64,000 nt of DNA from Parcubacteria group bacterium Gr01-1014_38 (GTDB lineage: Bacteria; Patescibacteriota; Andersenbacteria; UBA10190; CAIZMI01). The notes under the pieces were generated by a model that was not told where the DNA came from, did no database searches, and was given only the letters and a program-made list of their open reading frames with translations. Made by a program: the position numbers and the translations under genes. Below, piece after piece: positions 3,388-34,361 of the stretch; position 1 is the first letter of the stretch, and each line of letters starts with the position of its first letter. The DNA lies in assembly GCA_007376145.1 (NCBI GenBank), contig VMFP01000004.1, positions 70,988 through 134,987 of the forward strand, in the 5' to 3' direction.

Positions 3388-3402
3388 CGCCGCGCGCCGC
3401 TT

Positions 3403-5207: not shown

Positions 5208-5240
5208 CGGCGTTCCCGCGCACGAAACCTTACGCGCACC

Positions 5241-5789: not shown

Positions 5790-5811
5790 CATACACAAAT
5801 GTCCCTGAATG

Positions 5812-6780: not shown

Positions 6781-6782
6781 TT

Positions 6783-8051: not shown

Positions 8052-8062
8052 AGAGAACTTCT

Positions 8063-8084
8063 GTATGCTAGGATCCTAGCATAC
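8063..8084. promoter_or_regulatory. perfect 22-bp palindrome GTATGCTAGGATCCTAGCATAC between divergent start codons (candidate operator or RBS-sequestering hairpin)
   Basis: The reverse complement is identical to the sequence itself. It ends one nucleotide before the ATG of the 2,3-dehydratase (8085) and lies 12-24 nt from the divergent C-methyltransferase start. Confidence 0.4.
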
Positions 8085-9518: not shown

Positions 9519-9527
9519 AAACCGAAA

Positions 9528-10352
9528 CTACGGTGCGTGATCTGGTTTCCGAAAGACTTTGCTCGGAAATCCCAGTTTTGCAAGCAAGAACGCTGCCAGC
9601 ACCCCGAGGGTCTGGACGGTGTACAGAATACTGTTTTTCAAACTCGCACCTCGCTTTTTGCCCGTGTACTGCACTTCGACGGGCACCTGACTCACCGCAC
9701 AGCGATGAAACGCTGCCTGCGCTAATAATTGCGCACTGAAGCTAAAGTCATCCGCGTTTGCGTGGTAGTTCACCTTTTCCAGCAGTGATCTGGCATACAC
9801 ACGAAATCCCTGATGATAATCACGAATCGGGAGACGAAGAACAATTGTGCAGAGAGCATCCAGCAGCATGACGACGGGGACTTTCCAGATGAACATGCCG
9901 CTCTTGATCGGATCGTGACCATCAGAAAATCTGTTCCCCAAGACGAATTCTGCTCCCCGCTCGATTTCTTGAAGGGCCGGCGCAATTGCAGAGGTTTTAT
10001 ATTCGCCGTCCGGATGAATATCCACGATGATGTCCGCTCCCTGCTCCAACGCGATATTCAATGCGCGCTTCAGATTCCCGCCGTATCCGCGGTTCACCTC
10101 ATTCCGATACGATTCAATGCCGAGCTCTTGAGCAAGGGCAAACGTCCGATCTTTCGATGCGTCGTCCACCAAGATGACGCGGTGGAAGAGTTCTTTTGGG
10201 AACACTCTCCAGAATTCCGCGAGCGCCTTTTCTGCATTGTAGGCAATGAAGATCGCGAAGAGCTTCGGCTGACCGCGTACAGACGCCCGTGCAGAAGCTC
10301 GCATAGTCTGGAGAGACGCGCGCGATGTTCCCGCGTGTTCCGCAACAGACAT
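9528..10352 (-). CDS. GT2 glycosyltransferase (polyprenol-phosphate sugar synthase-like) with C-terminal TM segment
   Basis: ...PKLFAIFIAYNAEKAL...VILVDDASKDRT...DIHPDGEY is a GT-A fold signature. A hydrophobic segment sits at the C-terminus. The alternative start is 10304. Confidence 0.7.
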   Translation of the reverse strand: MSVAEHAGTSRASLQTMRASARASVRGQPKLFAIFIAYNAEKALAEFWRVFPKELFHRVILVDDASKDRTFALAQELGIESYRNEVNRGYGGNLKRALNIALEQGADIIVDIHPDGEYKTSAIAPALQEIERGAEFVLGNRFSDGHDPIKSGMFIWKVPVVMLLDALCTIVLRLPIRDYHQGFRVYARSLLEKVNYHANADDFSFSAQLLAQAAFHRCAVSQVPVEVQYTGKKRGASLKNSILYTVQTLGVLAAFLLAKLGFPSKVFRKPDHAP

Positions 10353-10388
10353 TGTTCCTCAATGAAATGACGAAGATGACGTAAGCGA

Positions 10389-12173: not shown

Positions 12174-12357
12174 TCACGGACAGTAAGCAGAAGGGCTACT
12201 TCGTGCAACTGCATGGTTCGTAACCGCTCACTGATGGGAAAGTGCCCAAAGAGAGATGCACCGAGCGGGTTTCGAGCGCGCAGTTCGCGCGAGACCCCGA
12301 TCCCTGCAGGGCGAGGAAAGCGAGAGGCGCCCTTCTTGGGCGCTCGTATGCTTTCTG

Positions 12358-14577: not shown

Positions 14578-14582
14578 ACACC

Positions 14583-16112
14583 TTACTCTGTCTGGTCCTG
14601 ATTCTCGTACACCCAGGCATACGGCAAACCGTTAATGGTGACGACAGAGAGCGGAGTTACCCGTCCCAGATATCGTTGAAGGAACGCCGTCTCGTAGCTA
14701 TCGTTCGACCGTTCGAACATGCTTCGGTACAGCACCACATATCTGAACCCTGGCTCGTGAGAACGCACCAGGCGCTCAACTTGGCCATGGTAAAATTTCG
14801 CGAGAACCCGGGGATAATACGAGACCACTGGAACGCCAGCGTCAGGCTGTGCGTTCAAAAACTCGGCGGCGTGCTCCAACCCTTCACCCCATCCCAGCTT
14901 TCGGTTTTCTCTGATAGGAAACAAGCGATTGTAGTGAGCGAGAGGGTAGGGATGGAGACGCTGAACTTCCCAAGCGTTGAGAACAAGAAAGAGACCGGCG
15001 ACGACGGCACGCGCTGCCCATGGGCGAGCGGAAGGCGCCATGCGCCCCAGAAATCCCCCCAGAGCCGACGCCCCAGACATTGCAAGGAGATCAGCGGCGA
15101 GAAAGAGGATGAGAATCCAACGGTCACTCTTGGTGGAAAAAACACTGATGACCCCGGCATACCCCGCGGCGAGGAGAAAAACGGTGAGTGCGACAGCGTG
15201 CAGGTCCGAGAGGGAGTCAGATACCGCTGTTGATTGCGGTGCGCGACGCGCCCTCCGCTTCATGTGTGCGAGCGCCGTGAGCATACCAATGGGCGCGAGC
15301 ACGGTCACGACGGGAGTTGTGCGGAAGAGAAACTCTCGCGGGTAATACCACCAGCGTTCTTCGCCACCGCGACCGCGCGCCTCCCCCAGAGAAATACCTG
15401 CTTGCTTATAAAACGCGTCGATGTTGGTTTTGGTGGGAACCCACAGCGCCGGCCAAAGAGCAATAATGGTGATGATGCTCGCGAGCGCCCAGACTGCCGC
15501 GAGGCGAATCCACGACCGCAAGGATGAAGAAGAAAACCGAAGAAGCAATAGGCAGCCGACGAGGAAGATCGCGCCATGGAGTTTCGTGAGGAGTACAAAG
15601 CCGGCAGTCACGCCACTCATGACCAAATACCGACGCGCCCGCGTTCGTTGGTAGAGCATAAGAAGCAGCGTGGTGAGGAGAAGAAAAAGCGCCAGTAGCG
15701 CATCGGTATGAACCACCCGGCTATGGGCTACCAGGAACGGATCGAGGGCGAGCGCCGCGGCCATGGCAAGCCCGACCCAGAAAGAGGTGAGTTTCACCAG
15801 GAGATACGCGCTGACGAACAGCGCACAAGAAACAGCGAAAGCGATCGCTCCCTGCGAAGCGGCAAGAGACTGAAACTGATCAGCAACTCCCGCGAGCCAG
15901 GCGGTCGTGACGCCCGGATGAATATTCGTAAACGTCTTCCCAACATCGAGTGTCGCGAGTCCCTCGATAAACTTTGCGCCGCGGGCAATCCAGAGCGGTT
16001 CGTCAATTGTGAGGGAGGTTCCGAGGCCGGCAAGACGCGGCACAAGAACCATGATCGCAAAGATCCCAATCGCACACGCGCGGCGAAGGTCTACGGGAAA
16101 GTGGACGCGCAC
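14583..16112 (-). CDS. GT-C fold membrane glycosyltransferase, ArnT/PMT_2-like
   Basis: 509 aa. It has the TIDEPLWIARG motif and many TM helices. It is tandem to the previous GT-C gene. Confidence 0.6.
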   Translation of the reverse strand: MRVHFPVDLRRACAIGIFAIMVLVPRLAGLGTSLTIDEPLWIARGAKFIEGLATLDVGKTFTNIHPGVTTAWLAGVADQFQSLAASQGAIAFAVSCALFVSAYLLVKLTSFWVGLAMAAALALDPFLVAHSRVVHTDALLALFLLLTTLLLMLYQRTRARRYLVMSGVTAGFVLLTKLHGAIFLVGCLLLLRFSSSSLRSWIRLAAVWALASIITIIALWPALWVPTKTNIDAFYKQAGISLGEARGRGGEERWWYYPREFLFRTTPVVTVLAPIGMLTALAHMKRRARRAPQSTAVSDSLSDLHAVALTVFLLAAGYAGVISVFSTKSDRWILILFLAADLLAMSGASALGGFLGRMAPSARPWAARAVVAGLFLVLNAWEVQRLHPYPLAHYNRLFPIRENRKLGWGEGLEHAAEFLNAQPDAGVPVVSYYPRVLAKFYHGQVERLVRSHEPGFRYVVLYRSMFERSNDSYETAFLQRYLGRVTPLSVVTINGLPYAWVYENQDQTE

Positions 16113-16119
16113 GCCAGGA

Positions 16120-16821
16120 ATGCTACACTACCGACTCATGCGTTTCCAGGATCTCGTAAAGCACTTGCCAGTTGATTTGGGACAAGGAACGTACCGGCAC
16201 ACGACCAAAGCAAAACTCATTGCATACAGACTAGCGGGAACGGGAAACGGAAAACGCGCTCTTGATTTGGGCTGCGGGGACGGGTTTTGGTCGGCGAAAC
16301 TTCGAGAACGCGGCTGGGACGTGACTGCGGCAAACTATCAAGACACACGCTGCCCGGGTGTAATGGAAGTGAATGTGGAGTTGCCGCTGCCATTTCCCTC
16401 CAATTCGTTTGACCTTGTATGGATGGTAGAAGTTCTCGAACACGTCCAAAATATTCCTAACTGCACCCGGGAAGTCCGAAGAGTTCTTCGGCCCAACGGA
16501 CGCATTATTCTTACCACGCCGAATTCCGCATTTTGGCTGTATCGCGTTCTACAGCTGTTTGGTATTACTCCGGCGCAAATTCAAAACCCCGATCACAAGC
16601 AGTTTTTCTCACTCCGGGACATCCGGGCGCTTTTCCCGGAGGCAGACATCTACGGCTTCTTCCCCTACGCCGTGCTCAAGTTCACCATCCGCCGCGGGAT
16701 TGGCCGCCTGTCTCCCACGTTCGTGGTTATTGACCGCGCACCCCGTGCAGCTGCGTCACAGCGTCCCTCTCTCGACGAGACGGATCAGGAAGCGCACGCG
16801 TCGATGCGCGCGCCCGCCTAG
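16120..16821 (+). CDS. class I SAM-dependent methyltransferase
   Basis: ALDLGCGDGFWSAKLRERGWDV is motif I. The start is trimmed to the first ATG after the divergent gene (16120). The alternative start is 16138. Confidence 0.6.
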   Translation: MLHYRLMRFQDLVKHLPVDLGQGTYRHTTKAKLIAYRLAGTGNGKRALDLGCGDGFWSAKLRERGWDVTAANYQDTRCPGVMEVNVELPLPFPSNSFDLVWMVEVLEHVQNIPNCTREVRRVLRPNGRIILTTPNSAFWLYRVLQLFGITPAQIQNPDHKQFFSLRDIRALFPEADIYGFFPYAVLKFTIRRGIGRLSPTFVVIDRAPRAAASQRPSLDETDQEAHASMRAPA

Positions 16822-16890
16822 TGCCGCGGTGCCTGCGCCAAGGACCCGCGTCGGACTCCCTCGGACGACCGCCGCGACGAGAGTCCACCA

Positions 16891-17835
16891 TCATTCCACC
16901 GGCGGTTTAAAGCATGAAATTTCCAGGACGGAACCCATACCAGTGATATCGAACACACCGTACAGCGCATGACGCAGAGCGCGAATGCCGGCCCCCACCA
17001 GCGATCGGCGGTAGACGTGCTGGACATAGTCGTTACGAACTCGCTCTCCCGCGCGCCGAAAAATGAGTTCGAGGAGCGTTTCGGGAATCCCGTAGCTCCG
17101 AATGGAAATGTCAGCAAACCCAAGCCGTTCAAGCATGGTGCGGGCGGATCGTCGAGAAAAAAAGAGCAGATGGAGCGGCGGGTGACCGCCGATCCAACGA
17201 TCAATTCCGAGGAGAATGGTCAGAGACTGGACATTGGGAAGCCCGGAAATAAACAAGAGTCCTCCGTTTTTGAGGAGCCGCTGGAGGTACACGACATAGC
17301 GCTCTGGCTCCGCGATATGCTCCAAGACACTCGCCATAAAAACGGCATCGAACGACCCCGCCTCCAACCGAGCCTCGAACAGGGAACAGCGCTGAATACC
17401 CAGACGCTCATCCTTTTCGGATGAACGGACCCAATCTCCTGGGTCAACGCCCGCTGTTTCCCAACCCTCCGCTGCAGCGATCTCGAGAAACTGCCCTCCG
17501 CCGCACCCCAGTTCAAAAATTTTTCCCTTCCTCTGAAGGATCCGGTGCAGCCGACCAAGCTGTTCCCGCGCTTTTTCCGCGATCCATACTCTCTCGCCGC
17601 CCAGGAAGCAGTCGGTGTCCAGGTACTCCGTGTGAAAAAAATTGTCGTATTCGTCCCTGGGAAGCGCATACGCGGCGAGCAGCGACGCCTCCGACGGACG
17701 CGGGGAGACGTAAATCATCCCGCAGACGGTGCATTTCTCCAGCCGCCAGCCGTTCAACGTCTTCCACTGCCGACTGTTGTTCCGTCCGCAGGCCGGGCAT
17801 CGAAGGACGGATACCGTTTCCGTCGGGAATGTCAT
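16891..17835 (-). CDS. class I SAM-dependent methyltransferase with N-terminal Zn-ribbon
   Basis: CPACG...CTVCG ribbon, then ELGCGGGQFLEIAAAEG. The start is ambiguous: 17835, 17862 or 17970. Confidence 0.6.
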   Translation of the reverse strand: MTFPTETVSVLRCPACGRNNSRQWKTLNGWRLEKCTVCGMIYVSPRPSEASLLAAYALPRDEYDNFFHTEYLDTDCFLGGERVWIAEKAREQLGRLHRILQRKGKIFELGCGGGQFLEIAAAEGWETAGVDPGDWVRSSEKDERLGIQRCSLFEARLEAGSFDAVFMASVLEHIAEPERYVVYLQRLLKNGGLLFISGLPNVQSLTILLGIDRWIGGHPPLHLLFFSRRSARTMLERLGFADISIRSYGIPETLLELIFRRAGERVRNDYVQHVYRRSLVGAGIRALRHALYGVFDITGMGSVLEISCFKPPVE

Positions 17836-22551: not shown

Positions 22552-24102
22552 ATGAACCGTGGGTACGACTCTCCAGTGAACGGCGCACACGCATCGCCGC
22601 CGACGGCGCTTCCCCGCTTGCTCCGTTTCGACGTGTCGGAACGGTCACTCACCACGCGGACGGTCCACGCCCTCACGCAGTACGGGGCGCTCGGCACCCT
22701 CGGCCTGCTGACCCTTCCGCTGTTTTCTCGACTTCTCGGGTCGGCCGGCGTCGGGCGGATGTTCCTCTACCTGACCATGCGGAGTTTCGTGCGTCACCTC
22801 TGCCTCGTAAACGTCCGGGAAGGAACACTCCCTCTCCTTCCGCACCTCACGGACCGAGCGGCGATTCGCGCACAGTACCTCGCCAGTCTCACGACGGGTC
22901 TCCTGTCCGCGGCGGTCTGGAGCCTGGTCGTCGCGACCCTCGGACCGTGGATCCTCCCTGCCGTCCTCCGGGATGCGAGCCCGGCGCTTAGCCTGCTGCT
23001 CTTCTCGACGGCGGTCGCCGACCTCGGGATCATGCTCCCCCAAGCCTTCCAGCGCACCCGTATCCTCGCCCTGGCGAATACCGCCGTGGAAGTTGGCGGA
23101 GTGACACTGGCTCTGGCGCTCGTTTTCGCAGGCCGGGGCCCCGAGGCGATCATCTGGGGATTGAGCGCCTCTGCTCTGCTGACGGGCATCGTCCTGCACG
23201 CGCTCGCGCTCCGAGCCGTCGGCGGATTCGCGCGCCCGCAACCGGCGCTCGCCCGGCACGCAATCCATTTCGGCGTACGTCTCTTGCCGATAACCTTCCT
23301 CCCGAAATTCCTCGACGGCATCGGGAGGATCACCGCCGCGGTCCTTCTCGACGAACGCGCCGTGGGCATTCTCGCCACGGCGTACCTCGTCGCGAGCCCT
23401 CTCCTCGCCACTCTCACGGTGCTCGGGTTCGTCTGGCTTCCCACCGCGAAATACCTCCTCGTCCACGACCGCGACCGGTTTGCGCGGCTCCTCGCGACGG
23501 CGCCGCGAGTCTTGGGAAGCGTTCTTGGTATCGGGATCATTCTCATCACGGCCATCGCTCCCGCCGTGATCCCGGCTGTGTCCACGCCGGATTTCGCCGC
23601 CGCGGCGACCGCGGTGCCGCTCATTGCCGCCGGACTCGCGTCCTTCGTCTTCGCGGCACTCCTCCAAGGACTCTTCCTCGCCATGGGAACGGTCCGCCCC
23701 GTCCTCCAGTCAGCACTTCTCTCACTCCTCGCCAGCGCGACACTCGCCTTTCCGCTGACGCGGTCCGCGGGGATGCTCGGCGCGGCGGCCGCCGGCACCA
23801 TCGGCTACGCGGTTCATGTCGGTGTTCTCCTCTTCCGCTGGCAGCAACTCGGTGCCGTGCCGCTCCCGTGGGCGCAGCTGCGGCTGATTGCCGGTCTTTC
23901 GACGCTCTTCGTTCTCGTCGCCGTTGGCGCCGGGCGACATCTGAGCGCGGCCGCCAGCGCGGCAGGCGGAGTCCTCCTCGCCGGCGGGCTGGTCTTCCTC
24001 CTCGGCCTGTTCGGCGTTTTCTCCTGGAGAGAACTCCGGCGCTTTACTCTTCTGCTGATGAAAGCGGGCGCACGCGCGTGGGCCCCGCGCGATCCTCTGT
24101 AG
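22552..24102 (+). CDS. polysaccharide flippase, Wzx-like (MOP superfamily), start uncertain
   Basis: About 12-14 predicted TM helices. The N-terminus LTLPLFSRLLGSAGVGRMF resembles the Polysacc_synt N-terminus. It is divergent from the GT4 gene. The true start is probably downstream of 22552. Confidence 0.5.
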   Translation: MNRGYDSPVNGAHASPPTALPRLLRFDVSERSLTTRTVHALTQYGALGTLGLLTLPLFSRLLGSAGVGRMFLYLTMRSFVRHLCLVNVREGTLPLLPHLTDRAAIRAQYLASLTTGLLSAAVWSLVVATLGPWILPAVLRDASPALSLLLFSTAVADLGIMLPQAFQRTRILALANTAVEVGGVTLALALVFAGRGPEAIIWGLSASALLTGIVLHALALRAVGGFARPQPALARHAIHFGVRLLPITFLPKFLDGIGRITAAVLLDERAVGILATAYLVASPLLATLTVLGFVWLPTAKYLLVHDRDRFARLLATAPRVLGSVLGIGIILITAIAPAVIPAVSTPDFAAAATAVPLIAAGLASFVFAALLQGLFLAMGTVRPVLQSALLSLLASATLAFPLTRSAGMLGAAAAGTIGYAVHVGVLLFRWQQLGAVPLPWAQLRLIAGLSTLFVLVAVGAGRHLSAAASAAGGVLLAGGLVFLLGLFGVFSWRELRRFTLLLMKAGARAWAPRDPL

Positions 24103-24159
24103 GCGTGTCCGCTTTTAAGAAACGGCCGCAAACGTGAGGCTTGGAGAGCATTCACCGAC

Positions 24160-25344
24160 TCAAAGAGCCGCTCGACCCGCGGCGGCAGGGAGAGCATCCA
24201 CTGGCACACCGCAGGCCGCGTACGCCGTGCGAACGACGTCGGCGACGTCTTCTTCGGTCATCCCCGCCCAGAGCGGCAAACGGACGAGCGTTTCTCCCAC
24301 CGTCGTGGTCACCGGGAGCGCCCCGTGCGACCGGCTGAACCTCTGGCCCGCCGGTGACGCGTGGAGCGGAACGTAATGGAAGACCGCGTAGATGCCACGC
24401 GCATTTAGGTGGGCGAGGAACGCATCCCGAGCCTCGTGCGTGGGGAGCAGCAGAGAGTACAGGTGAGCGTTGTGGACGCAGTGGGGCGGGACCACGGGCC
24501 GCCGGACCCTTCCCGCCGCCTCGAGGGGCGCCAGTGCAGCATGGTACCGCTCCCAGATGGCACGGCGGCGCGCGGTCACGGACTCGGCGCCTTCGAGCTG
24601 CGCGGCGAGGAACGCCGCCGTGACTTCGCTCGGCTGGAAGGAGGAACCGAGATCGACCCACGTGTACTTCTCCGTCTCCCCTCGCGCAAACGCACTCCGG
24701 TTGGTCCCCTTCTGCCAGAGGGTGTCGGCTCGCTCCCGGTAGCGGTCGTCATTGATGAGGAGCGCCCCGCCTTCACCCGAGGTGATGTTCTTCGTCTCGT
24801 GGAAGCTTAGCGCGGCGAGATGCCCGATGCTCCCGAGTTCGCGCCCCCGATACGTGGCCAACATCCCGTGCGCCGCATCCTCGATGACGACCAGTCGGTG
24901 TCGCCGTGCGATGTCTACGATCGCGTCCATCTCACATCCGATTCCCCCATAGTGGACGACGACGATCGCCCGGGTGCGCGCGCTGATCGCGGCCTCGATT
25001 CTTGTTTCGTCAAGATTGAGGGTGTCCGGACGAATATCCACGAACACCGGGGTTGCACCCCGCACGGCGAAGGCGTTCGCCGTCGAGACGAACGTGAACG
25101 AGGGCATGATGACTTCGTCGCCTGGCTGCAGATCCAGGAGGAGAGCGCAGAACTCGAGCGCCGCGGTACAGGAGTGGGTGAGCAGAACTTTCCCGCAGCC
25201 AAGATGCTCCTTAAGCCACGCGTGACACCGCTGCGTGAACATCCCGTTGCCTGACAGTTGACCGCGATCGAAGGCCTCCCTGATGTAGTCGAACTCTTTT
25301 CCGGAGAGCGACGGGCGGTTGAAGGGAATCCGGTACGGAGACAT
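24160..25344 (-). CDS. DegT/DnrJ/EryC1/StrS-family PLP aminotransferase, closest in motif pattern to dTDP-4-keto-6-deoxyhexose 4-aminotransferase (WecE/RffA type)
   Basis: From MSPYRIPFNRP: ...GKEFDYIREAFDRGQLSGNGMFTQRCHAWLKEHLGCGKVLLTHSCTAALE...FSFHETKNITSGEGGALLIND tracks the E. coli WecE sequence closely as I recall it. The Schiff-base Lys is retained. Confidence 0.75.
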   Translation of the reverse strand: MSPYRIPFNRPSLSGKEFDYIREAFDRGQLSGNGMFTQRCHAWLKEHLGCGKVLLTHSCTAALEFCALLLDLQPGDEVIMPSFTFVSTANAFAVRGATPVFVDIRPDTLNLDETRIEAAISARTRAIVVVHYGGIGCEMDAIVDIARRHRLVVIEDAAHGMLATYRGRELGSIGHLAALSFHETKNITSGEGGALLINDDRYRERADTLWQKGTNRSAFARGETEKYTWVDLGSSFQPSEVTAAFLAAQLEGAESVTARRRAIWERYHAALAPLEAAGRVRRPVVPPHCVHNAHLYSLLLPTHEARDAFLAHLNARGIYAVFHYVPLHASPAGQRFSRSHGALPVTTTVGETLVRLPLWAGMTEEDVADVVRTAYAACGVPVDALPAAAGRAAL

Positions 25345-25348
25345 AGAA

Positions 25349-26272
25349 TCACCCGAGCCGAACCGTGATGCTCTTGATGAGGTCGGCAGCGCAGGCGTCG
25401 GGTCCACCCTCGAGCTGAACACGCCGGAGAAGGATCACGCCGTCACCGGTCAGCACCCAGATCCCCTCGCCGGGCCGGACCTCTACCACGCGACCAGGGA
25501 TTCGGCCCGCGTACCGCCGCGGCGTAGGGAGCGGCTGCGCCGACCACACCGTGAGCCGCTTTCCCTCAAACCACGTGTATGCGCCGGTGTACGGTCTCGT
25601 GACGGCACGAATACAATTCCAGATGACGCTGGTCGGCTCGCTCCACACGATCCGGTTGTCCTCCGGTGTCCGTTTGCAGGTATACGTCGCGCGGGAGTGG
25701 TCCTGCGATCGCCGCGGCGCCCGACCCTCCCACAGAAGCGCGAGGTTTCGCTCAAGAAGCTGTACGTACCCCTCCGTAATGCGGGGCAACACATCGGCAA
25801 TCGTCTCCTCGAGCCGGAGAGGAGTTTCCCACTGGTCGATGATGTCCCCGGCGTCAACCTCCTCCGCGACATAAATCAGCGACACGCCGCCACGCGTCTC
25901 ACCGTTGACCAGAGCCCAGACCGTGGGCGAGAAGCCACGATAGGCGGGAAGAAGGGAATCATGAAAGACGACGGACGCGCGGCGGACGGCGCGGAGCAGC
26001 GGAAAAGAAACCAGATACCGCCAATGGACCATCAAAACGAGGTCAATCGGGTTCTGCCAGATTTCCGCCGCCTTGGGAGAGGAAACATTCTTGGTCTCGA
26101 AGAACCGCGCGCCGTGCGCCTCCGAGAACCGACGGATCTCCTCGAGGTAGGGCGGCTCCCACGGTTCCTCGCGGAAACTACAGACCGTGAGATCGTCGGC
26201 CGGACAGAGTTCACGCAACCGCCGGAGAACGACGAGACCGCGCGGCGTCGCGCAGAGGAGAACGATGGACAC
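25349..26272 (-). CDS. formyltransferase (Fmt/ArnA-N-terminal-like); candidate sugar N-formyltransferase
   Basis: VVFHDSLLPAYRGFSPTVWALVNGE is the Formyl_trans_N SLLP..RG motif. It is immediately downstream of folD/glyA and upstream of the 4-aminotransferase. Confidence 0.75.
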   Translation of the reverse strand: MSIVLLCATPRGLVVLRRLRELCPADDLTVCSFREEPWEPPYLEEIRRFSEAHGARFFETKNVSSPKAAEIWQNPIDLVLMVHWRYLVSFPLLRAVRRASVVFHDSLLPAYRGFSPTVWALVNGETRGGVSLIYVAEEVDAGDIIDQWETPLRLEETIADVLPRITEGYVQLLERNLALLWEGRAPRRSQDHSRATYTCKRTPEDNRIVWSEPTSVIWNCIRAVTRPYTGAYTWFEGKRLTVWSAQPLPTPRRYAGRIPGRVVEVRPGEGIWVLTGDGVILLRRVQLEGGPDACAADLIKSITVRLG

Positions 26273-26274
26273 GG

Positions 26275-27504
26275 TTACCGTGGGGAAGTTCGTGAGGGCG
26301 CGGAGGACGCCGACCCGACAACCAGTTGGGGGAAACGCTGCATCGTCTCCGACATGTCGCGGACGCTCTCGAGGTCCAGCCGCTGCTTCGCTGCAGTATA
26401 GAGCCGTTCATGAAAAGAGACCACGGCGTCAAGATCAAAGTAGCGGCGGATACCATCTCGCCCAGCGCGGCCGATTCGCTCCATCTGGGCGCGGTCTGCG
26501 CACAGCCGCCGGATGGCAGAACCCAGTGCGCGAACGTCTCTTGGGGGGACGAGGAGACCGTTCACGCCGTCGCGAAGAACTTCCTTCCGCATGTCGACGC
26601 GGAATCCGACGAGCGGCAAGCCTGCCGCGAGCGCATGGATGACCGTCATGTTGATTCCTTCGTTGACGGACGTACGGAGCACCAGGTCGGCACGACGGAA
26701 GAGCCGGTCGAGATCCCGGCGGTAGCCGGCGAAGAGGACGGCGTGGCCCACACGGCACGCCCGGACGAGCGAGCGAAGCCGGCGTTCCTCCGGACCCTCG
26801 CCGACGAGAAGGAGACGAGCGTGCGGCCATTCCGCAAGGACATGCTGCCAGGCTTGGATGGCATACTGGTGGCCCTTGTCGACATGGAGCCGCCCGATGG
26901 AGAGCGCGACGGGGTACGCGCCCGCGAGATCAAACGGTGGAAGCGTGAACTCTGGGTCCCTCCGGAGCGCGAACATCGGCGCCAGATCCCCCACGATCTC
27001 GACCGCTTTCACTTTCCTCGACGCAATCCCCGTCCCCTCCAGCTCCCACGGAGAAAAGGTGAGATAGAGCGTGACCCAGCGTTGGAGGAGGACGAGGGCA
27101 CGGAGGTACCACGACGCCGACTGCGCTCGCGTCGCCACGATCGTGTGTACGAACGGAACGCGGGCGAGACGCGCCCCGAGCGTTCCCAGAAGGAAGGAGA
27201 CGGGGAGGAAGGCGTGAACGATATCTGGCTGCTCACGCCGAAGAAGCAGACAGAGCCGAAGGAGAACGGGAAAGACTCGGAGAAGGCTTCTCCGGGGACT
27301 CAACGTCACGACCCGCAGTCCGCACTCCGGCAACATGGTCTCATACGCCCCGCCCGCGTGAAGCGCCACCACCGCGATCCGTACACCGCGGGAAACGAGA
27401 CACCTGCCGAGCTGCGCGATGTACTCCTGGGCACCACCAGCAACGAGCGTATCAATGAGGATCACGACTCGTGGATTCTGGCGCATGTTGTTTAGGACCC
27501 TCAC
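26275..27504 (-). CDS. GT4-family (GT-B) glycosyltransferase
   Basis: VVILIDTLVAGGAQEY..., then C-terminal ...SVNEGINMTVIHALAAGLPLVGFRVD... Confidence 0.7.
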   Translation of the reverse strand: MRVLNNMRQNPRVVILIDTLVAGGAQEYIAQLGRCLVSRGVRIAVVALHAGGAYETMLPECGLRVVTLSPRRSLLRVFPVLLRLCLLLRREQPDIVHAFLPVSFLLGTLGARLARVPFVHTIVATRAQSASWYLRALVLLQRWVTLYLTFSPWELEGTGIASRKVKAVEIVGDLAPMFALRRDPEFTLPPFDLAGAYPVALSIGRLHVDKGHQYAIQAWQHVLAEWPHARLLLVGEGPEERRLRSLVRACRVGHAVLFAGYRRDLDRLFRRADLVLRTSVNEGINMTVIHALAAGLPLVGFRVDMRKEVLRDGVNGLLVPPRDVRALGSAIRRLCADRAQMERIGRAGRDGIRRYFDLDAVVSFHERLYTAAKQRLDLESVRDMSETMQRFPQLVVGSASSAPSRTSPR

Positions 27505-27510
27505 GCGAGG

Positions 27511-28470
27511 TCAGTCTCGCGGTGCACGCAGTGTGATCGGCGGTGTGTTCGTGCTCGACGTCTCGCGCACGGGACGGTTGGCCCCCGGCACGAGAGGAGA
27601 AGACGGAGCTCCTGCTTCGGCCTGTTCCGCTGCCTGCACGACGTTTTCCAGGAGCAGACAGACGGTCATGGGACCGACGCCGCCCGGGACAGGCGTCAGC
27701 GCACCGGCGATCGGCCGAACCGACACTTCGTCGACGTCACCGTGCCACCCCTCGGCGGTGTGGTGCGCTCCGGCATCAACCACGATTGCTCCCGGACGGA
27801 CATGCGCGGCCGTGATGCCGCGGGGCATTCCTGTAGCAGCGACGAGCACGTCAGCGGACCGCGTGAGCGAGGCCAAGTCGCGCGTGCCCCGGTGGCAGAC
27901 GGTCACCGTTGCGTTCGCGTCGGGACGTTTCTGCAGCAGAAGAAGCGCCAGCGGCCTGCCGACGAGCCGCCCCCGTCCCACGACGACGACGTGCCGACCG
28001 GCGATGGTGATGCCGCTCCGGAGCAGGAGCTGATGGATTCCCGCCGGCGTCGGGGGGGGGAAGCGCGGTACGCCAAGCGCGAGGAGACCGAGGTTCTCCG
28101 GATGGAGACAGTCGACGTCCTTCAACGGCGCGATGTGCGCGAGGAGATCCGCCTCCGCATGTCCAGCCGGGAGGGGAAGCTGAAGGACGATCCCGTGGAT
28201 GTCTGGTGCGGTGCTCCACGCCGTCAGGAGATCGCGGAGCTCATCGTCGGAGGTCGCGGCTCCTCGCTGCTCGACAATCGTTCGAATGGCGAGGCGGCGG
28301 GCGGCATATTCCTTGTTCTTCACAAAGACGTGGATGACGGGATCCGTTCCCACCACGAGAAGCGCCAGCGTCGGTATCACGCCGCGCCGGACGAGCCCGT
28401 CGACGCGCGGAGCCAACTCCGCGTGGAGCGCGCGCGCAACCTGCCGGCCATCGAGGAGACGGGCGGACAT
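27511..28470 (-). CDS. folD: bifunctional methylene-THF dehydrogenase / methenyl-THF cyclohydrolase
   Basis: From MSARLLDG: ...KNKEYAARRLAI...GIVLQLPLP...VVVVGRGRLVGRPLALLL...PVPGGVGPMTV. It has a Pro-rich C-terminal tail. It contains a G8/C8 run at 28052-28059. Confidence 0.8.
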   Translation of the reverse strand: MSARLLDGRQVARALHAELAPRVDGLVRRGVIPTLALLVVGTDPVIHVFVKNKEYAARRLAIRTIVEQRGAATSDDELRDLLTAWSTAPDIHGIVLQLPLPAGHAEADLLAHIAPLKDVDCLHPENLGLLALGVPRFPPPTPAGIHQLLLRSGITIAGRHVVVVGRGRLVGRPLALLLLQKRPDANATVTVCHRGTRDLASLTRSADVLVAATGMPRGITAAHVRPGAIVVDAGAHHTAEGWHGDVDEVSVRPIAGALTPVPGGVGPMTVCLLLENVVQAAEQAEAGAPSSPLVPGANRPVRETSSTNTPPITLRAPRD

Positions 28471-28472
28471 GC

Positions 28473-29795
28473 TCAAGGTGGCGGGAACGCGCGGGCAAAC
28501 GCGCGGACCTCCTCCCGAAGGCGCGTGAGACGATCGGTGTCCGAGCGATGCAGGAGCGTCTCTGCAATCCAATCTGCGATTCTCCGCATCGCGTCCTCTC
28601 GCATGCCGCGGGTCGTGAGCGGCGGCGTACCCAGGCGCAGTCCGGAAGGATCCTTGGGCGGCCGCGGGTCATCGGGAATCGTGTTTTTATTCGCGGTGAT
28701 GCCGACCAAGTCGAGGGCGGCTTCTGCCTCGGTCCCCGTCAGACCGTGCGGACGCAGGTCAAGAAGGAGAAGGTGCGTGTCTGTTCCGCCGGTGACGAGC
28801 CGGAAGCCGTGCTCCGCGAGACGCTCGGCAAGGGACCGGGCGTTGGCAACAACCTGCCGCGCATAGACGGAGAACTCCGGCTGCAGCGCTTCCTGAAAGC
28901 ACACGGCTTTCGCCGCCGTGACGTGGTCGTGCGGCCCCCCCTGGATTCCGGGGAACACGGCGCGGGCGATCGCCGCGCTGTGCTCCCGCCGGCTGACAAT
29001 GACGCCGCCGCGCGGCCCGCGAAGCGTCTTGTGCGTCGTGAACGTCACGACCGGCGTGAAGGGAAATGGCGAGGGGTGAGCACCACCGACGATGAGGCCA
29101 GCGACGTGGGCGATATCCGCGACGTGGAGAGCACCGACCTCGTCGGCAATGGACTGCAGGGCGCGGAAGTCGATCGCACGCGGATAGGCACTTGCCCCGG
29201 AGAACAGGATGGCGGGACGGACGCGCCGCGCCAGCGCGCGGATCGCGTCGAAGTCGAGGTGCTCGGTCGTCGGATCGAGTGCGTACTGATGCGCCTCATA
29301 GGCGATGCCGGAAAACGCCACCCGATGCCCGTGGGAGAGGTGACCACCGTGTGTCAGCTGAAGCCCAAGGAGGCGACTCCCAAGCGGCGCGAGGCCCAAA
29401 AGAACCGCAATGTTTGCGGACGTGCCGGAATACGGCTGGACATTCGCATCCCATTCCAAGCACTCCTTTCCACGGAGGAACAAACGAAGCGCGCGGGCGC
29501 AGGCAAGATCTTCGACCGCGTCGATCACTTCCTGCCCCCCGTAGTAGCGCTGGCCAGAGTACCCCTCCGAATACTTATTCGTGAGAACCGACGACAGCGC
29601 CGCCCGTACCGCCGGCGATGCGTAGTTTTCTGAAGGGATGAGTTCAAGCCCATCACGCTGGCGCTCTTCCTCCGCGATCAGAAGTCTCTCGACCTCCGGA
29701 TCGGTCCGGACGAGAGGGTCTGCCGACACCTCGTGCAGGGCCGCGCGGGCATCACGCGGGCCTACCGGCTCTCCGAACGTGGCTGCGGAAATCAT
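28473..29795 (-). CDS. glyA: serine hydroxymethyltransferase
   Basis: ...LELIPSENYASPAVRAALSSVLTNKYSEGY...TTHKTLRGPRGG... has the PLP-lysine motif. Confidence 0.9.
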   Translation of the reverse strand: MISAATFGEPVGPRDARAALHEVSADPLVRTDPEVERLLIAEEERQRDGLELIPSENYASPAVRAALSSVLTNKYSEGYSGQRYYGGQEVIDAVEDLACARALRLFLRGKECLEWDANVQPYSGTSANIAVLLGLAPLGSRLLGLQLTHGGHLSHGHRVAFSGIAYEAHQYALDPTTEHLDFDAIRALARRVRPAILFSGASAYPRAIDFRALQSIADEVGALHVADIAHVAGLIVGGAHPSPFPFTPVVTFTTHKTLRGPRGGVIVSRREHSAAIARAVFPGIQGGPHDHVTAAKAVCFQEALQPEFSVYARQVVANARSLAERLAEHGFRLVTGGTDTHLLLLDLRPHGLTGTEAEAALDLVGITANKNTIPDDPRPPKDPSGLRLGTPPLTTRGMREDAMRRIADWIAETLLHRSDTDRLTRLREEVRAFARAFPPP

Positions 29796-29951
29796 GAGCC
29801 TAAAAGAGCATAGGATTGGAAAATCCTAAACGCAAGTGCGCGGACTGCGTTTGGGATACCGAGCGTCGCGCAAACCCCCACGGGAACGTCAGCGCCGGCT
29901 CCGACGTGGGAACCACGCAGACGACGCGGGCAACGAGCGCACGGCAAACGT

Positions 29952-32270
29952 CTATCGCGCCCGACGGAGGTAGACCCGGATGGGAGTCCCGTTCCCACTG
30001 CCGATTTCTCGCTCGAGCCGGTACTTGGCCTCGAGCGCCGACGGGATGCGCGGGTACCGCCCATACGTGTCGTCGAAAAGCTTCTCGGTCACGACTGCCG
30101 CGATGTCGCCACGCTCGAGCATGTCGGCAAGGGGACCAAAATGTCCGTGGTACCCCGGATTCGGCCGGCCGCGCCACGTAGGCTGATCGGCGGACGGGTG
30201 CGCCAGCCTCCCGGGAACAGACCGGTCGGCAAACAGCGGAATCAACACCGCCGCTGCGAGCACCTGGTCATCCGGCGCCGTGAGCGAGCGAACGGCCGTG
30301 ATGGATTCCCGGACGGCGTGCATCGCGAGCGTGCCAGCGTAGGGACGAGCGTGAAGCACCGGGTACCACGCCGCGGTGAGTATCAGGATAAGCCCAGCAA
30401 CAACGGCCGCTCGCGCCGCCAGCCGTTCCGTGGAGCCCCATGGGCTGACGCTTGGGGACTCCGGGCGAAGCTTGGTGAAAAGCGCCTCCAGCACGCGCCC
30501 GAACCCTACGCCCGCAAGCAGGACAAGCCCCGGAAGGAACTCCGCGGCATACTTCTCGTTCGTCTTATAGAAAACGGCGTACGCGAGCGCAGGAGGAATG
30601 AGGAACGAAACGACTTCGAGCGTTTGCGTGCCGCGAAGCCCTCCGGGGAATCCCCGCCCAAGAATCCAGATGGCGAGTGGAACGGAACCGACCACGGCGG
30701 GGACCCACGCATACGCCGACCGCCACTCCCCAGAAAGATAGGGGAAAAAGAATGCTGCCGCAATTCCTCCCGCGACGATGGTGCCCGTCACGCGCCCGCG
30801 GGATGTTCGCCCAGGATACGCCAGTCCCGCAAGCGTCAGCAGTGGAACGAAGTCGCCGAAGATGCGACGCCAGCGACTGATCTTTTGGAGCACGCTTCCC
30901 CTGGACCGTTCGATAAACTCCTGGAGAAGCTCGACGAGAATGCGGGCCCCGTAAACGGCCTCTGGAACGAGTGCCGATGCGGCGAGCCCGAGGAAAACGG
31001 GAACGGATACCAGGGTAGCCGCACGCCGGAAAAACTCTCGAGGGGAGCGCGTCCGAAGCAGGAGCGCGCCTTGGAGAAACCAGAAGATCGCGCTCCAACG
31101 CGTGAGTACACCGAGTCCAAGGAGACCGCTCGCAATCACCAACAGGGAGAACGGAGCAGGTGTCTGCTGGCGCGCGCGAAGAATGCAGATGATCCCGAGG
31201 AGGATGGGAACGGCCATCAGTTGTTCGGTCAGCACCAGGACGCTGTGTGCCGCGGGTGCCGGCGCCAGAAAACCGATCAGAAGCACACCGAGCGCTGCAG
31301 ACGGTCCTACCAGCTGGCGCGCCACGCGCGCCAGGAGTACGGTGCTGAACAGTCCTGCCGCGATGATCAGCAGGCGTGGCTGCAGCGGGTCGGTAAAGGG
31401 CCGGAGTTGATGCGCAAGACCGACGAGCCCGATCAGCACCGGCGATTTCCAGAAATACGGCTGGTGAATATTCCACGTGACACCGTTGTACACGTACGAC
31501 TGCTCGTCGTTCACGAGCGGGTGCTGCACCGCAAACCACCACCGCGCGGCTGCACCGGCAATGAGAAGACCGCACACGATGGCAATCCGCCCCCACCGGG
31601 AATTGAAACGCGTGAAGAGGTGCGCAGTTCTGCGGAGCAGAAATACGGCCACGGAAAGAAGCGCGCCGACACCAACGATGCTTGCGCCGGTCGCAACGGT
31701 CCTCCCAATGTTCGGCGAGAGTGCTTCCCATCGCGGACGCGGTGTGAGGAGTTGAGAAGAAAGCGCGAATGGACGGCGCCCGTCACGCAACGAGCGCCCC
31801 TTTCCCACGCGAAGCAGATGCGCATTCGTGTCTCCTTTCTCATCGCGTTCGTCCACCCACAGACGTACTGGTTGGTCCGGCGATACTCCCCGCGTCGCCA
31901 CCTCGATTGCGACTGTCCGCCCGGCCAGGTTCTGTGGCAAGGCAATACTGAGTTCGACAACATCTCCAGCACCCCGTACCCTCGGCGCCTTGGACGCAAC
32001 AAGTGAATCGCCAGCGACGCCGCTGCGGACCGCGATCCATACCCGTCCCTTCCGAGGCCGATGGTCAGTAAAAAGAGCGAGCCGACCAGTAAATTCCTTT
32101 GGGACTTTCAGGGGCTGCACCAATCGTTCATCGTCAGAGACGAACGCAAACATGCCACTTCGTCCCACCTCTTCCATAACCACTCCAAGAGGACGCGTCA
32201 GCCACCACACTCCGTACCCGACTGCAACAGCGACGAGAAGTGCGATGCCACCGTGCAGGCGTCGAGTCAT
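29952..32270 (-). CDS. GT-C fold membrane glycosyltransferase, ArnT/PMT_2-like, with extra N-terminal extracytoplasmic domain
   Basis: 772 aa. It has LVNDEQSYVYNGVTW (DE motif) and many TM helices. Confidence 0.6.
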   Translation of the reverse strand: MTRRLHGGIALLVAVAVGYGVWWLTRPLGVVMEEVGRSGMFAFVSDDERLVQPLKVPKEFTGRLALFTDHRPRKGRVWIAVRSGVAGDSLVASKAPRVRGAGDVVELSIALPQNLAGRTVAIEVATRGVSPDQPVRLWVDERDEKGDTNAHLLRVGKGRSLRDGRRPFALSSQLLTPRPRWEALSPNIGRTVATGASIVGVGALLSVAVFLLRRTAHLFTRFNSRWGRIAIVCGLLIAGAAARWWFAVQHPLVNDEQSYVYNGVTWNIHQPYFWKSPVLIGLVGLAHQLRPFTDPLQPRLLIIAAGLFSTVLLARVARQLVGPSAALGVLLIGFLAPAPAAHSVLVLTEQLMAVPILLGIICILRARQQTPAPFSLLVIASGLLGLGVLTRWSAIFWFLQGALLLRTRSPREFFRRAATLVSVPVFLGLAASALVPEAVYGARILVELLQEFIERSRGSVLQKISRWRRIFGDFVPLLTLAGLAYPGRTSRGRVTGTIVAGGIAAAFFFPYLSGEWRSAYAWVPAVVGSVPLAIWILGRGFPGGLRGTQTLEVVSFLIPPALAYAVFYKTNEKYAAEFLPGLVLLAGVGFGRVLEALFTKLRPESPSVSPWGSTERLAARAAVVAGLILILTAAWYPVLHARPYAGTLAMHAVRESITAVRSLTAPDDQVLAAAVLIPLFADRSVPGRLAHPSADQPTWRGRPNPGYHGHFGPLADMLERGDIAAVVTEKLFDDTYGRYPRIPSALEAKYRLEREIGSGNGTPIRVYLRRAR

Positions 32271-32322
32271 CGTTGCTTTAAGACCTACGGCAGGCGCGGC
32301 ACAATGCTGGACACGTCAGCGT

Positions 32323-33120
32323 TCACGACTCTTTAGGAACAGTCCGAACAACGACGGCCTCTGTTGCTTTCAGGGTCGCCGACATCCCGCGTCTGTCACG
32401 CAGCGCGGCATGGTGGCGCCACACGTGTCGCGCGAACGCGCGCAAGAACTTCGGTATCTCTCGTGTCAGACGCAGTTTCGAGCCCCCAAAGCGCCGGTCG
32501 TGAAATGCCACCGGAACTTCACTCACCGCATACCCGCGCACATAGGCGAGGAGGATCATTTCAAACAGCAGCGCATTCGTTTTTTCCGTCGTCGCAATCG
32601 CGTGCCAGGTCTCGCGCCGCATGAATCGAAAATTCGCGGAAAAGTCTCCGATGGGGATACCCGTGATCGTGCGCACGATACGATTGCCCAACCTGCTGAC
32701 GAATCGCTTGATCCAGATCTGACGATTCGACGCCTCGTAGACGCTGCCGGCAATATGCCGACTGCCGACAACGAGGTGGTATCCTTCACGTATCCGGGCG
32801 TACAGACGAAGGAGGTCCCAAGGATCAAACGAGAGATCCGCGTCCATCGAGGCAATCACCTTCCCGCGGCTTTCGTCATAGCCAACGCGGAGAGCGGCGC
32901 CGATGCCTTCTTTCCGTTCCTTTGTCACGAGACGGACCGGATATCCAGCGTCGCACAATGCCTGCGCCAGTGCTCCCGTACCGTCCGGCGATCGGTCATC
33001 AACAATCACGATCTCGTAGGAAAGCCCATGAAGAGCGTCTGCAACCGCCGGCACAAGACGCGCGATGTTTTCTCTTTCGTTGTACGTGGGGATAACGAGC
33101 GACAGTTCGAGAGCATTCAT
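32323..33120 (-). CDS. GT2 polyprenol-phosphate sugar synthase (Dpm1/GtrB-like)
   Basis: LSLVIPTYNERENI...IVIVDDRSPDGT...MDADLSFDP. Confidence 0.8.
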   Translation of the reverse strand: MNALELSLVIPTYNERENIARLVPAVADALHGLSYEIVIVDDRSPDGTGALAQALCDAGYPVRLVTKERKEGIGAALRVGYDESRGKVIASMDADLSFDPWDLLRLYARIREGYHLVVGSRHIAGSVYEASNRQIWIKRFVSRLGNRIVRTITGIPIGDFSANFRFMRRETWHAIATTEKTNALLFEMILLAYVRGYAVSEVPVAFHDRRFGGSKLRLTREIPKFLRAFARHVWRHHAALRDRRGMSATLKATEAVVVRTVPKES

Positions 33121-34361
33121 GACGTGCCTTGGAGAGACTTGGTAACACGAAGATTCTGCGCACCCACGCCAGCCATTTCAGGAGCAGTAAAGACATCGAC
33201 GATTTCCTTCATTTCTTCCTCGGTCAATTCAGGATTATTGCCGACATACAACCCTTGCGCGTGAATGAGCGCGGCATTTGATCGAGACAAGCTCCCCGCA
33301 AGTTGGCCCATGTATTTTCGAAAAAATGGTTGCTGCGTCATGTCGCCCCCCACGATCGGACGAGTTTCAATGCGCCCCTCGCAAGCGGTGACCAGCGAAC
33401 GATGGAGACTCTCCGACTGACAGATAACAGGCAACGCGAAATTAGAAAATGTCTCAAGATGATCATGGCGAAGCGGATAATAGCGATCTGTCAGTCCGTA
33501 GATTGCCGACGCCATGCGATGAAAATTCTTCTCGCGCGTGTGTACAATCTCGGAAAGGTACGGAAGCCCCGCGTTGCCGAGAAATCCCGCAATCTCCGTG
33601 GGACGGAGATTGTACCCAAGGTCGTAAAACGTGTAGCGGGAGTAAAACGTTGAGGCAACCCGATGCTTTTCTCGCAGCGCTGTTTGCGTGGTTCGATCGA
33701 GATTCCGATCCCACCCGTGGGCGCGTACAATGCGCACCATGTTTGCGAGCTCTTGGTCATCCGTGCAGACCGCTCCTCCCTCAATCGTCGAGAACTGATG
33801 CCCGACATAGAATGAGAATGTACTCGCAAGTCCAAAATTCCCAAGGCGCGTTCCCTGGTAGACGGTGCCGAGCGATTCACACGCGTCTTCCAGAAGAACA
33901 ATGCCCCGCTCCGCGCACACATCGCGAATGCGATCAATGTCATCGCACCATCCGAGTACATCGGTAAGAAACAACAGACGCAGCGGATAGGCTTCAAGCT
34001 GATCGAGGAGAGTGCGGCTCGAAACATTCAAGGTATCGAGTTCGCAGTCGATCGGCACGGCGGTGAGTCCCAGTTGCAGTAACGGCATGACATTGGTGGA
34101 CCACGTGAGTGCGGAAAAGCCGACGCGATCGCCCGCGCGAATCCGTTCAAGATTGAACAGCGCCTGCATGAGCGCAAGATTTGCTGAACTTCCGCTGTTG
34201 ACCATCACGCAGTGCTTTCGTTCTTGGAAGATCGCAAAGTTCTTCTCGAACGTCTCGCACGCCGGACCCATGCTGAGCTTTTCGGTGTGGAGGAGAAAAT
34301 CGGCGAGTGCTTCCCGCACCTCCTGCTCGCGATAGAAGCTTGACTTGACGAGGGGAATCAT
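33117..34361 (-). CDS. DegT-family PMP-dependent sugar 3-dehydrase-like enzyme (ColD/E1/SpnQ type: active-site His replaces the PLP-binding Lys)
   Basis: ...VMVNSGSSANLA...FGLASTFSFYVGHQFSTIEGGAV... A His stands where aminotransferases of this fold (e.g. FSFHETKNITSGEGG in the ORF at 24160) have Lys. There is no C-terminal Cys cluster, which makes it ColD/SpnQ-like rather than E1-like. Confidence 0.6.
   Translation of the reverse strand: MIPLVKSSFYREQEVREALADFLLHTEKLSMGPACETFEKNFAIFQERKHCVMVNSGSSANLALMQALFNLERIRAGDRVGFSALTWSTNVMPLLQLGLTAVPIDCELDTLNVSSRTLLDQLEAYPLRLLFLTDVLGWCDDIDRIRDVCAERGIVLLEDACESLGTVYQGTRLGNFGLASTFSFYVGHQFSTIEGGAVCTDDQELANMVRIVRAHGWDRNLDRTTQTALREKHRVASTFYSRYTFYDLGYNLRPTEIAGFLGNAGLPYLSEIVHTREKNFHRMASAIYGLTDRYYPLRHDHLETFSNFALPVICQSESLHRSLVTACEGRIETRPIVGGDMTQQPFFRKYMGQLAGSLSRSNAALIHAQGLYVGNNPELTEEEMKEIVDVFTAPEMAGVGAQNLRVTKSLQGTS

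Follow-up and report, generated by a model that had tools for sequence, protein, structure and literature searches.

A glyA-folD pair beside an ArnA-like formyltransferase gene in a glycan island of a Parcubacteria group bacterium: dedicated donor supply or lineage-specific juxtaposition

The five-gene block and its formyltransferase

The 64-kb stretch of DNA from Parcubacteria group bacterium Gr01-1014_38 that is analysed here, referred to throughout as the window, contains a block of five open reading frames (ORFs), all on the minus strand and running from 29795 to 24160, which encode in order of transcription a serine hydroxymethyltransferase (SHMT, the product of glyA), the tetrahydrofolate (THF) enzyme FolD, a glycosyltransferase of family GT4, a formyltransferase of the ArnA/Fmt fold and a WecE-type sugar 4-aminotransferase (Table 1). 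The accessions TSC72477.1 and TSC72480.1 of NCBI, from a 136-kb contig, correspond exactly to proteins of this block in this organism. The initial annotation of the window had interpreted the arrangement as a sugar N-formylation operon equipped with its own supply of 10-formyl-THF. The analysis described below leads to a different interpretation, which is held to be probable with considerable room for doubt: the glyA-folD pair is the ordinary pair of its lineage, placed next to the sugar genes by a lineage-specific juxtaposition, rather than a conserved module dedicated to supplying the formyl donor.

Independent gene calls on the source metagenome contig (L001, 90.8 kb) give intergenic gaps of 2, 24, 2 and 4 nucleotides (nt) from glyA to the aminotransferase gene, and a scan of positions 23900-32400 revealed terminator-like sites within the block at a level not above that expected for shuffled sequences. 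With gaps of only 2-24 nt and terminator-like sites that are not convincing, the five genes are likely to be co-transcribed. No promoter-like or consensus site was found in the same interval, the 156-nt gap upstream of glyA included. Domain content, family scores and spacing all agree with the initial annotation as to the identity, order and tight packing of the five genes.

The assignments of the two one-carbon enzymes differ in how closely they follow the curated models. GlyA matches the Pfam SHMT domain over its full length (E=3e-142) and passes NF000586 with 519 bits against a cut-off of 335. FolD has both of its Pfam domains above cut-off and retains the Lys of the YxxxK motif, the Tyr of which is replaced by Phe; it misses all of the NCBIfam equivalogs (best score 280 against 438), and its nearest solved relative is the FolD of M. 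tuberculosis (E=1.6e-60). The protein ends in a 35-amino acid (aa) tail that is rich in Ser, Pro and Ala. The WecE-type aminotransferase passes both NF008687 (572 against 375 bits) and TIGR02379 (554 against 435 bits), with E. coli WecE (4piw, E=3e-134) as its closest solved relative, and the top NCBIfam match of the GT4 is a glycosyltransferase of the PEP-CTERM system, at a score far below the cut-off. The nearest named relatives of the SHMT and of the formyltransferase are only 55-57% identical and are spread over many phyla.

The formyltransferase scores 129 bits against the Fmt model TIGR00460, which has a cut-off of 201.5, and its best match in the Protein Data Bank (PDB) is the formyltransferase domain of ArnA (118 bits, E=3e-33), with Fmt at 87 bits; since it falls below the Fmt cut-off and lies nearer to ArnA, it is classed as a sugar-type enzyme and not as Fmt. 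It also misses the other curated cut-offs, with 147 of 777 bits for NF005998 (ArnA), 173 of 316 for NF005414 and 31.5 of 238 for NF005755 (the formyltransferase of dTDP-Qui4N, in which Qui4N denotes 4-amino-4,6-dideoxyglucose). The Formyl_trans_C domain (PF02911) is present (E=1.3e-20), and because ArnA possesses it as well, it does not discriminate between the two. An AlphaFold2 model with a predicted local distance difference test score (pLDDT) of 92 superimposes on the ArnA formyltransferase domain (2bln) with a template modelling (TM) score of 0.87, and since both ArnA and Fmt score about 0.87 (range 0.84-0.89), the fold alone cannot decide between them. In E. coli Fmt, the acceptor arm of the tRNA is contacted by a basic loop inserted into the N-terminal domain. 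The segment which matches this loop in the window enzyme, residues 30-50, is acidic (isoelectric point, pI, 4.65) and contains the invariant residues E35 and E39, the equivalence being one of alignment and not of a structure of the complex.

The family to which the enzyme belongs is coherent, with more than 1500 matches that are 50-59% identical over the full length, and an alignment of 28 members has a mean column identity of 66%, indicating strong constraint. Invariant in all 28 are H104, D140 and the SLLPxYRG folate loop (S106-L108-P109...Y111-G113). An Asn-His-Asp triad typifies GART, Fmt, ArnA and those sugar N-formyltransferases that have been characterized. The position of the catalytic Asn (N102 of ArnA) is occupied by Val102 in the window enzyme and by Val in at least 90% of the 28 members, in an alignment which is ungapped with respect to ArnA N102-x-H104, and the catalytic His is followed by an invariant Asp (HDS instead of HGS) that has no counterpart in ArnA or Fmt. 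FDH-Nt and HypX, which also lack the Asn, still use 10-formyl-THF but pass the formyl group to a thiol. By analogy with such enzymes, 10-formyl-THF is the likely formyl donor of this enzyme, an atypical member of the family. The analogy with ArnA, WbtJ and VioF drawn in the initial annotation is thus sound in so far as it identifies an ArnA-like, sugar-type enzyme that is not Fmt, and incomplete in that the replacement of the catalytic Asn by Val was overlooked.

Genomic neighbourhoods of the formyltransferase family and of the glyA-folD pair

The neighbourhoods of the formyltransferase family were evaluated at 80 loci from a genome scan with one genome per GTDB species (L003-L082), in which about 6 kb on either side of the gene was examined, and at 80 further loci from a metagenome scan (L090-L169), many of which are short. 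Most of the genome loci belong to Chloroflexota, and the rest are from Gemmatimonadota, Acidobacteriota, Planctomycetota, Verrucomicrobiota and further groups. Clustering of the ORFs at the genome loci yields a conserved module composed of an ArnC-like glycosyltransferase of family GT2 (65 of 80 loci; 193 bits against the NCBIfam ArnC model), the formyltransferase, and a WecE-like aminotransferase (57 of 80). When the WecE-like gene is sought by tblastn, it is found at 59 of the 80 genome loci and 42 of the 80 metagenome loci. A WecD-like N-acetyltransferase of the GNAT family occurs at 21 of the genome loci. The module, found mainly in Chloroflexota and spanning at least six phyla, looks like an undescribed Arn-like route to a 4-amino-4,6-dideoxyhexose.

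The combination of an ArnA-like formyltransferase with this conserved WecE-type partner makes dTDP-4-formamido-4,6-dideoxyhexose the natural prediction for the product of the window enzymes. The same product had been proposed in the initial annotation, and it remains a reasonable prediction, with the caveat of the Val that replaces the catalytic Asn; the stereochemistry at C4, which distinguishes Qui4N from Fuc4N (4-amino-4,6-dideoxygalactose), is not decidable from sequence. The window departs from the module in having no ortholog of the family's ArnC-like GT2 (the best match is 31% identical, and the GT2 encoded upstream on the same strand only 26%), a GT4 gene instead preceding that of the formyltransferase. 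This GT4 placement recurs in two related loci, L088 (83% identity) and L089 (58% identity). In the latter (L089:4031-11131), the GT4, formyltransferase and WecE genes are followed by those of two sulfotransferases and of a fused ATP-sulfurylase/adenosine 5'-phosphosulfate (APS) kinase, an instance of 3'-phosphoadenosine 5'-phosphosulfate (PAPS) supply within a glycan cluster. In L088, the ortholog of the GT4, which is 83% identical, lies directly upstream of the formyltransferase, a Wzx-like gene occupies the same position as in the window, and an ORF runs from the start of the contig to a homologous stop codon just upstream of the GT4.

If glyA and folD constituted a built-in formyl-THF supply, as initially proposed, they would be expected near other members of the formyltransferase family. 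A tblastn search with the window proteins across the 160 other loci, which together provide 1.79 Mb of flanking sequence and of which 94 extend 4 kb or more upstream of the formyltransferase, found folD at none, and glyA at a single locus (L065), where it lies 4 kb away on the opposite strand. A single-copy gene of a genome of about 4 Mb is expected to occur about 0.45 times in 1.79 Mb by chance, and the observed counts of zero and one therefore indicate no enrichment in the rest of the family. Since about 0.3 occurrences of folD no more than two genes away from the formyltransferase are expected by chance, it is also not improbable that one lineage in about 160 should have this arrangement. 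A search of the literature found no report of glyA or folD coupled to a sugar formyltransferase.

The glyA-folD pair can also be followed in its own right. The SHMT of the window belongs to a small clade at 66-72% identity, beyond which identity is at most 61% across many phyla, and six contigs of the clade (L083, L084, L085/L086, L087 and L170), with SHMTs that are 68-71% identical to that of the window, were looked up. The folD gene directly follows glyA in all six, and the flanking genes vary. In L083, genes for a DegT-family enzyme, an epimerase, a GT4 and two 1088-aa proteins lie ahead of glyA-folD, and the contig stops just after folD; the DegT-family enzyme is a 62% identical ortholog of the one at the head of the same-strand run in the window. 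The two proteins of about 1088 aa, which have no Pfam match, stand in place of the 772-aa membrane protein of the window. In L084, the pair is followed by Methyltransf_21 and DUF268 genes and further downstream by rml genes, with no formyltransferase within 10 kb. In L085/L086, the surroundings encode a DEAD helicase, a hydrolase, MsrA, MsrB, DedA and sigma-70, and in L087 and L170 a DedA gene precedes the pair, with a GT2 gene after it in L170. A gene with a DedA/VTT domain thus adjoins glyA-folD at L085:6677-7333, L087:5146-5790 and L170:3145-3798; the DedA/VTT family has been implicated in the recycling of polyprenyl phosphate. A unit that is conserved in this way through changing and partly housekeeping contexts looks like the ordinary glyA-folD pair of the lineage. 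The proposal of a built-in supply is not supported by these comparisons, since the link to the formyltransferase is not conserved in either direction: it is missing from the formyltransferase family at large, and orthologous pairs occur in shifting contexts, some of them without a formyltransferase.

The head of the same-strand run and the surrounding glycan island

The five-gene block is the tail of a run of same-strand genes that extends from 34361 to 24160 (Table 1). The second DegT-family enzyme, with which the run begins, has RfbH as its top NCBIfam match (198 bits, below the cut-off), and the GT2 has ArnC, at 82 bits and thus far below the cut-off of 529. The 772-aa protein has no Pfam or NCBIfam match; some 12 segments of it are hydrophobic, one loop carries the motif NDEQSY, and its assignment to the GT-C class is putative. 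The NDEQSY loop recalls the DE motif of GT-C enzymes of the ArnT/PMT type. The 156-nt gap between this gene and glyA is the sole gap of more than 60 nt in the run, and the fold of this leader is no more stable than those of shuffled sequences (z = -1.2). A riboswitch of the ZTP, THF or glycine type upstream of glyA was considered and rejected, since there is no Rfam match at the gathering score in the window and none at E<=1 in 29700-30100.

Table 1. Features of the glyA-to-wecE block, the head of the same-strand run and the convergent flippase gene (positions in the window; lengths in amino acids, aa, or nucleotides, nt; PLP, pyridoxal 5'-phosphate)
Feature	Position	Strand	Length	Basis or remark
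Second DegT-family PLP enzyme, RfbH-like, first gene of the run	33117..34361	-	414 aa	Pfam DegT_DnrJ_EryC1
GT2 glycosyltransferase, Dpm1/GtrB/ArnC type	32323..33120	-	265 aa	Pfam Glycos_transf_2
Polytopic membrane protein, GT-C-like, directly upstream of glyA on the same strand	29952..32270	-	772 aa	Hydrophobic segments
Gap between the membrane protein gene and glyA; may hold an internal promoter or allow read-through	29796..29951	-	156 nt	
glyA, serine hydroxymethyltransferase	28473..29795	-	440 aa	Pfam SHMT, NF000586
folD, methylene-THF dehydrogenase / methenyl-THF cyclohydrolase	27511..28470	-	319 aa	Both THF_DHG_CYH Pfam domains
GT4 glycosyltransferase, presumed nucleotide-sugar user	26275..27486	-	403 aa	Glycos_transf_1 + Glyco_transf_4
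ArnA/Fmt-fold formyltransferase, predicted sugar N-formyltransferase	25349..26272	-	307 aa	Formyl_trans_N + Formyl_trans_C
WecE-type dTDP-4-keto-6-deoxyhexose 4-aminotransferase	24160..25344	-	394 aa	NF008687, TIGR02379, PDB WecE 4piw
Wzx-like flippase, convergent with the operon end	22552..24102	+	516 aa	Polysacc_synt, weak (25.7 bits; cut-off 28.2)

With the exception of glyA and folD, all assignable ORFs of the window are glycan or envelope genes. They include genes for five GT2s of the Dpm1/GtrB/ArnC type, at least nine large GT-C-like membrane proteins (PMT_2, YfhO, DUF2079 and two without a Pfam match), MurJ, the Wzx-like flippase, methyltransferases, an AsnB-like amidotransferase and a carbamoyltransferase, together with an NDP-hexose 2,3-dehydratase, C-methyltransferases and a ketoreductase, which are of the kind that act on branched or deoxy sugars. 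There is no RmlA or RmlB homolog in the window, so the precursor dTDP-4-keto-6-deoxyglucose must come from genes located elsewhere. The 9 kb past the window encode only further membrane proteins and proteins of unknown function; on the side beyond window position 1 (L171:19183-22293), two DUF4430 genes and one DUF6580 gene come after genes for three large proteins without a Pfam match.

The GC content at third codon positions (GC3) is 0.75-0.76 in glyA and folD and 0.74-0.79 in the GT4, formyltransferase, WecE and Wzx genes, and most of the window is alike; because glyA and folD match their neighbours, there is no sign that they are a recently imported extra copy. The composition of the window is otherwise a mosaic, with a GC3 of 0.56-0.66 at positions 1-17000 and 32323-34361 and of 0.71-0.79 elsewhere, which suggests that the low-GC3 segments are separately acquired cassettes of sugar genes.

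Interpretation of the linkage and comparison with known systems

On the favoured interpretation, the block would make up the distal part of a glycan operon on the minus strand, within a very large cell-envelope glycan island of a high-GC, uncultured host. The WecE-type enzyme would convert dTDP-4-keto-6-deoxyglucose to dTDP-4-amino-4,6-dideoxyhexose, which the ArnA-like enzyme would N-formylate with 10-formyl-THF; the GT4 would then add the formamido sugar to a lipid-linked glycan, and the Wzx-like protein would flip that glycan. GlyA and FolD, which would together produce 10-formyl-THF from serine and THF, are probably co-expressed with the consumer of their product, and the copy of the pair in the window is probably the only one in the genome. 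The analysis shows what the genes are, how they are spaced, that formyltransferase and WecE-type genes form a conserved pair and that glyA and folD are not linked to the family elsewhere; substrate, donor, co-transcription and copy number are all points that we infer. If the genome is small and of the candidate phyla radiation (CPR) type, single copies are to be expected, and the sugar formyltransferase could be a major consumer of formyl-THF, in which case co-expression would make sense without the genes being dedicated to it.

A number of observations weigh against this interpretation. The pair abuts glycan genes in four of the seven contexts provided by the window and the six related contigs, and in the window it lies inside the island and not at its edge, flanked before and after by glycan genes of its own strand, with gaps of only 2-24 nt downstream; moreover, glyA and folD are the only non-glycan genes identified in the 64 kb. 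The arrangement of folD, GT4 and formyltransferase is probably kept in L088, as judged from the ORF that begins at the start of that contig; the end of L083 just after folD and the start of L088 just before the GT4 do not overlap. Finally, the FolD of the window has Phe for the Tyr of YxxxK and the C-terminal tail, whereas four relatives have the Tyr and no tail, and such an atypical enzyme could be what a specialized paralog looks like.

These observations, together with the established biochemistry by which GlyA and FolD make the donor that enzymes of the GART/Fmt/ArnA fold use, and with the precedent of L089, where ATP-sulfurylase/APS-kinase stands beside sulfotransferases and the same formyltransferase-WecE pair, are the case for a dedicated and selected supply module, possibly a second copy, whose output of 10-formyl-THF scales with glycan synthesis. 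Such a module is nevertheless considered unlikely, given that folD is missing from all of the other formyltransferase loci and glyA occurs there at the chance rate, that orthologous pairs are found in non-glycan contexts or in glycan contexts with no formyltransferase within 10 kb, and that composition gives no sign of a separate origin. It is likewise doubtful that the pair was recruited, or duplicated and specialized, into the glycan operon in order to serve an Asn-less ArnA-like enzyme, a history with which the Tyr-to-Phe change and the extra tail of FolD would fit; if true, this would be the first case in which one-carbon metabolism is wired directly into the making of cell-surface glycans, the supply of one-carbon units from serine keeping pace with a sugar N-formyltransferase. 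A separate alternative bears on what becomes of the sugar and can be combined with both views of glyA-folD: N-formylation could be transient, in an Arn-like route resembling lipid A aminoarabinose synthesis, with the upstream GT2 loading polyprenyl phosphate and the adjacent GT-C-like protein transferring the sugar outside the membrane after flipping, so that the GT4 and the Wzx-like protein would not be the path. The usual partners of the family, an ArnC-like GT2 and a WecE-like aminotransferase, speak for such a route, as do the best match of the same-strand upstream GT2 to ArnC, the 12 predicted membrane segments of the protein beside it, and the many pairs of GT2 and GT-C proteins in the window. 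The route is judged possible though somewhat unlikely here, because the GT2 is divergent from that of the family and, at its length, stops short of the membrane-anchored C-terminus of ArnC, because a cytoplasmic GT4 immediately precedes the formyltransferase in the window, in L088 and in L089, and because no ArnD-like deformylase domain occurs among the approximately 45 ORFs scanned.

The remaining alternatives concern the formyltransferase itself. The protein could act on another acceptor (a thiol, as in FDH and HypX), use another donor or be non-catalytic, a proposal which draws on the Val that replaces Asn and the invariant Asp after His, on scores below the curated cut-offs of all named formyltransferase families, and on the WecD-like N-acetyltransferases of some loci, which would compete for the same amine. 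This is thought improbable in view of the invariant His104, Asp140 and folate loop in a strongly constrained family, of a confident model that superimposes on the ArnA domain, and of the constant pairing with a sugar 4-aminotransferase, which is what is expected of an N-acylating enzyme; the nearby glyA-folD pair, if it bears on the matter at all, fits a folate donor. The protein could alternatively be the Met-tRNA formyltransferase of the organism, making glyA, folD and fmt a housekeeping unit among glycan genes. It does possess a basic C-terminal domain of the Fmt type (pI 9.7), in fold it is as close to Fmt as to ArnA, and the annotations of NCBI and JGI are fmt-like. This identity is nonetheless very improbable, since the score for the Fmt model is below the cut-off, ArnA is the better match, the segment that corresponds to the tRNA loop is acidic with two invariant Glu residues, and members of the family stand with WecE and ArnC-like genes in many phyla whose genomes are large.

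The relation of the block to characterized systems can be evaluated most directly for the Arn pathway of E. coli and Salmonella (ArnB, ArnA, the GT2 ArnC and the GT-C enzyme ArnT), with which it shares the two-domain formyltransferase fold, ArnA being the best match in both sequence and structure, and a DegT-family 4-aminotransferase partner; most relatives also share an ArnC-like GT2. The differences are that the aminotransferase of the window is of the WecE type, acting on a dTDP-6-deoxyhexose, whereas ArnB acts on UDP-Ara4O; that the formyltransferase lacks the fused UDP-GlcA decarboxylase domain and has Val at the position of ArnA Asn102; and that a GT4 takes the place of the ArnC-like GT2, with no ArnD-like gene seen. 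The reaction predicted for the window, N-formylation of the nucleotide-linked 4-amino-4,6-dideoxyhexose with 10-formyl-THF, is that of WbtJ (Francisella), VioF (Providencia), Rv3404c (M. tuberculosis) and WbkC (Brucella). Enzymes of the WbtJ/VioF/Rv3404c/WbkC type are shorter and keep the Asn-His-Asp triad, and we know of none that is encoded beside glyA or folD. The window enzyme is only distantly related to WbkC and to the dTDP-Qui4N formyltransferases of the PDB (E=1e-11 to 8e-6). The N-formylated sugar Qui4NFm occurs in the O-antigen of Francisella (PMC10924466, PMC2897883). Formamido-sugar systems such as that of Francisella WbtJ have been described without a glyA-folD coupling.

In comparison with the enterobacterial common antigen (ECA) pathway, the aminotransferase of the window is WecE by its family models, and the N-acylating partner is a protein of the formyltransferase fold instead of the acetyl-CoA-dependent WecD; a WecF/WzyE/WzxE set was not identified in the window. 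The logic of donor supply is the same as for PAPS genes (NodPQ) located beside sulfotransferases, with the difference that the glyA-folD linkage is unconserved across the formyltransferase family and looks like housekeeping.

With some 160 lineages sampled, chance roughly accounts for one lineage in which a housekeeping pair adjoins a pathway gene, and the linkage described here should be read with that caution. If the coupling is functional, it would tie folate one-carbon flux to the decoration of the cell surface with glycans, which would be most relevant where a small genome leaves formyl-THF few other uses. Arguably the more solid lead provided by this analysis is the formyltransferase family itself, which points to a widespread and uncharacterized module of ArnA-like, WecE-like and ArnC-like enzymes with an altered active site.

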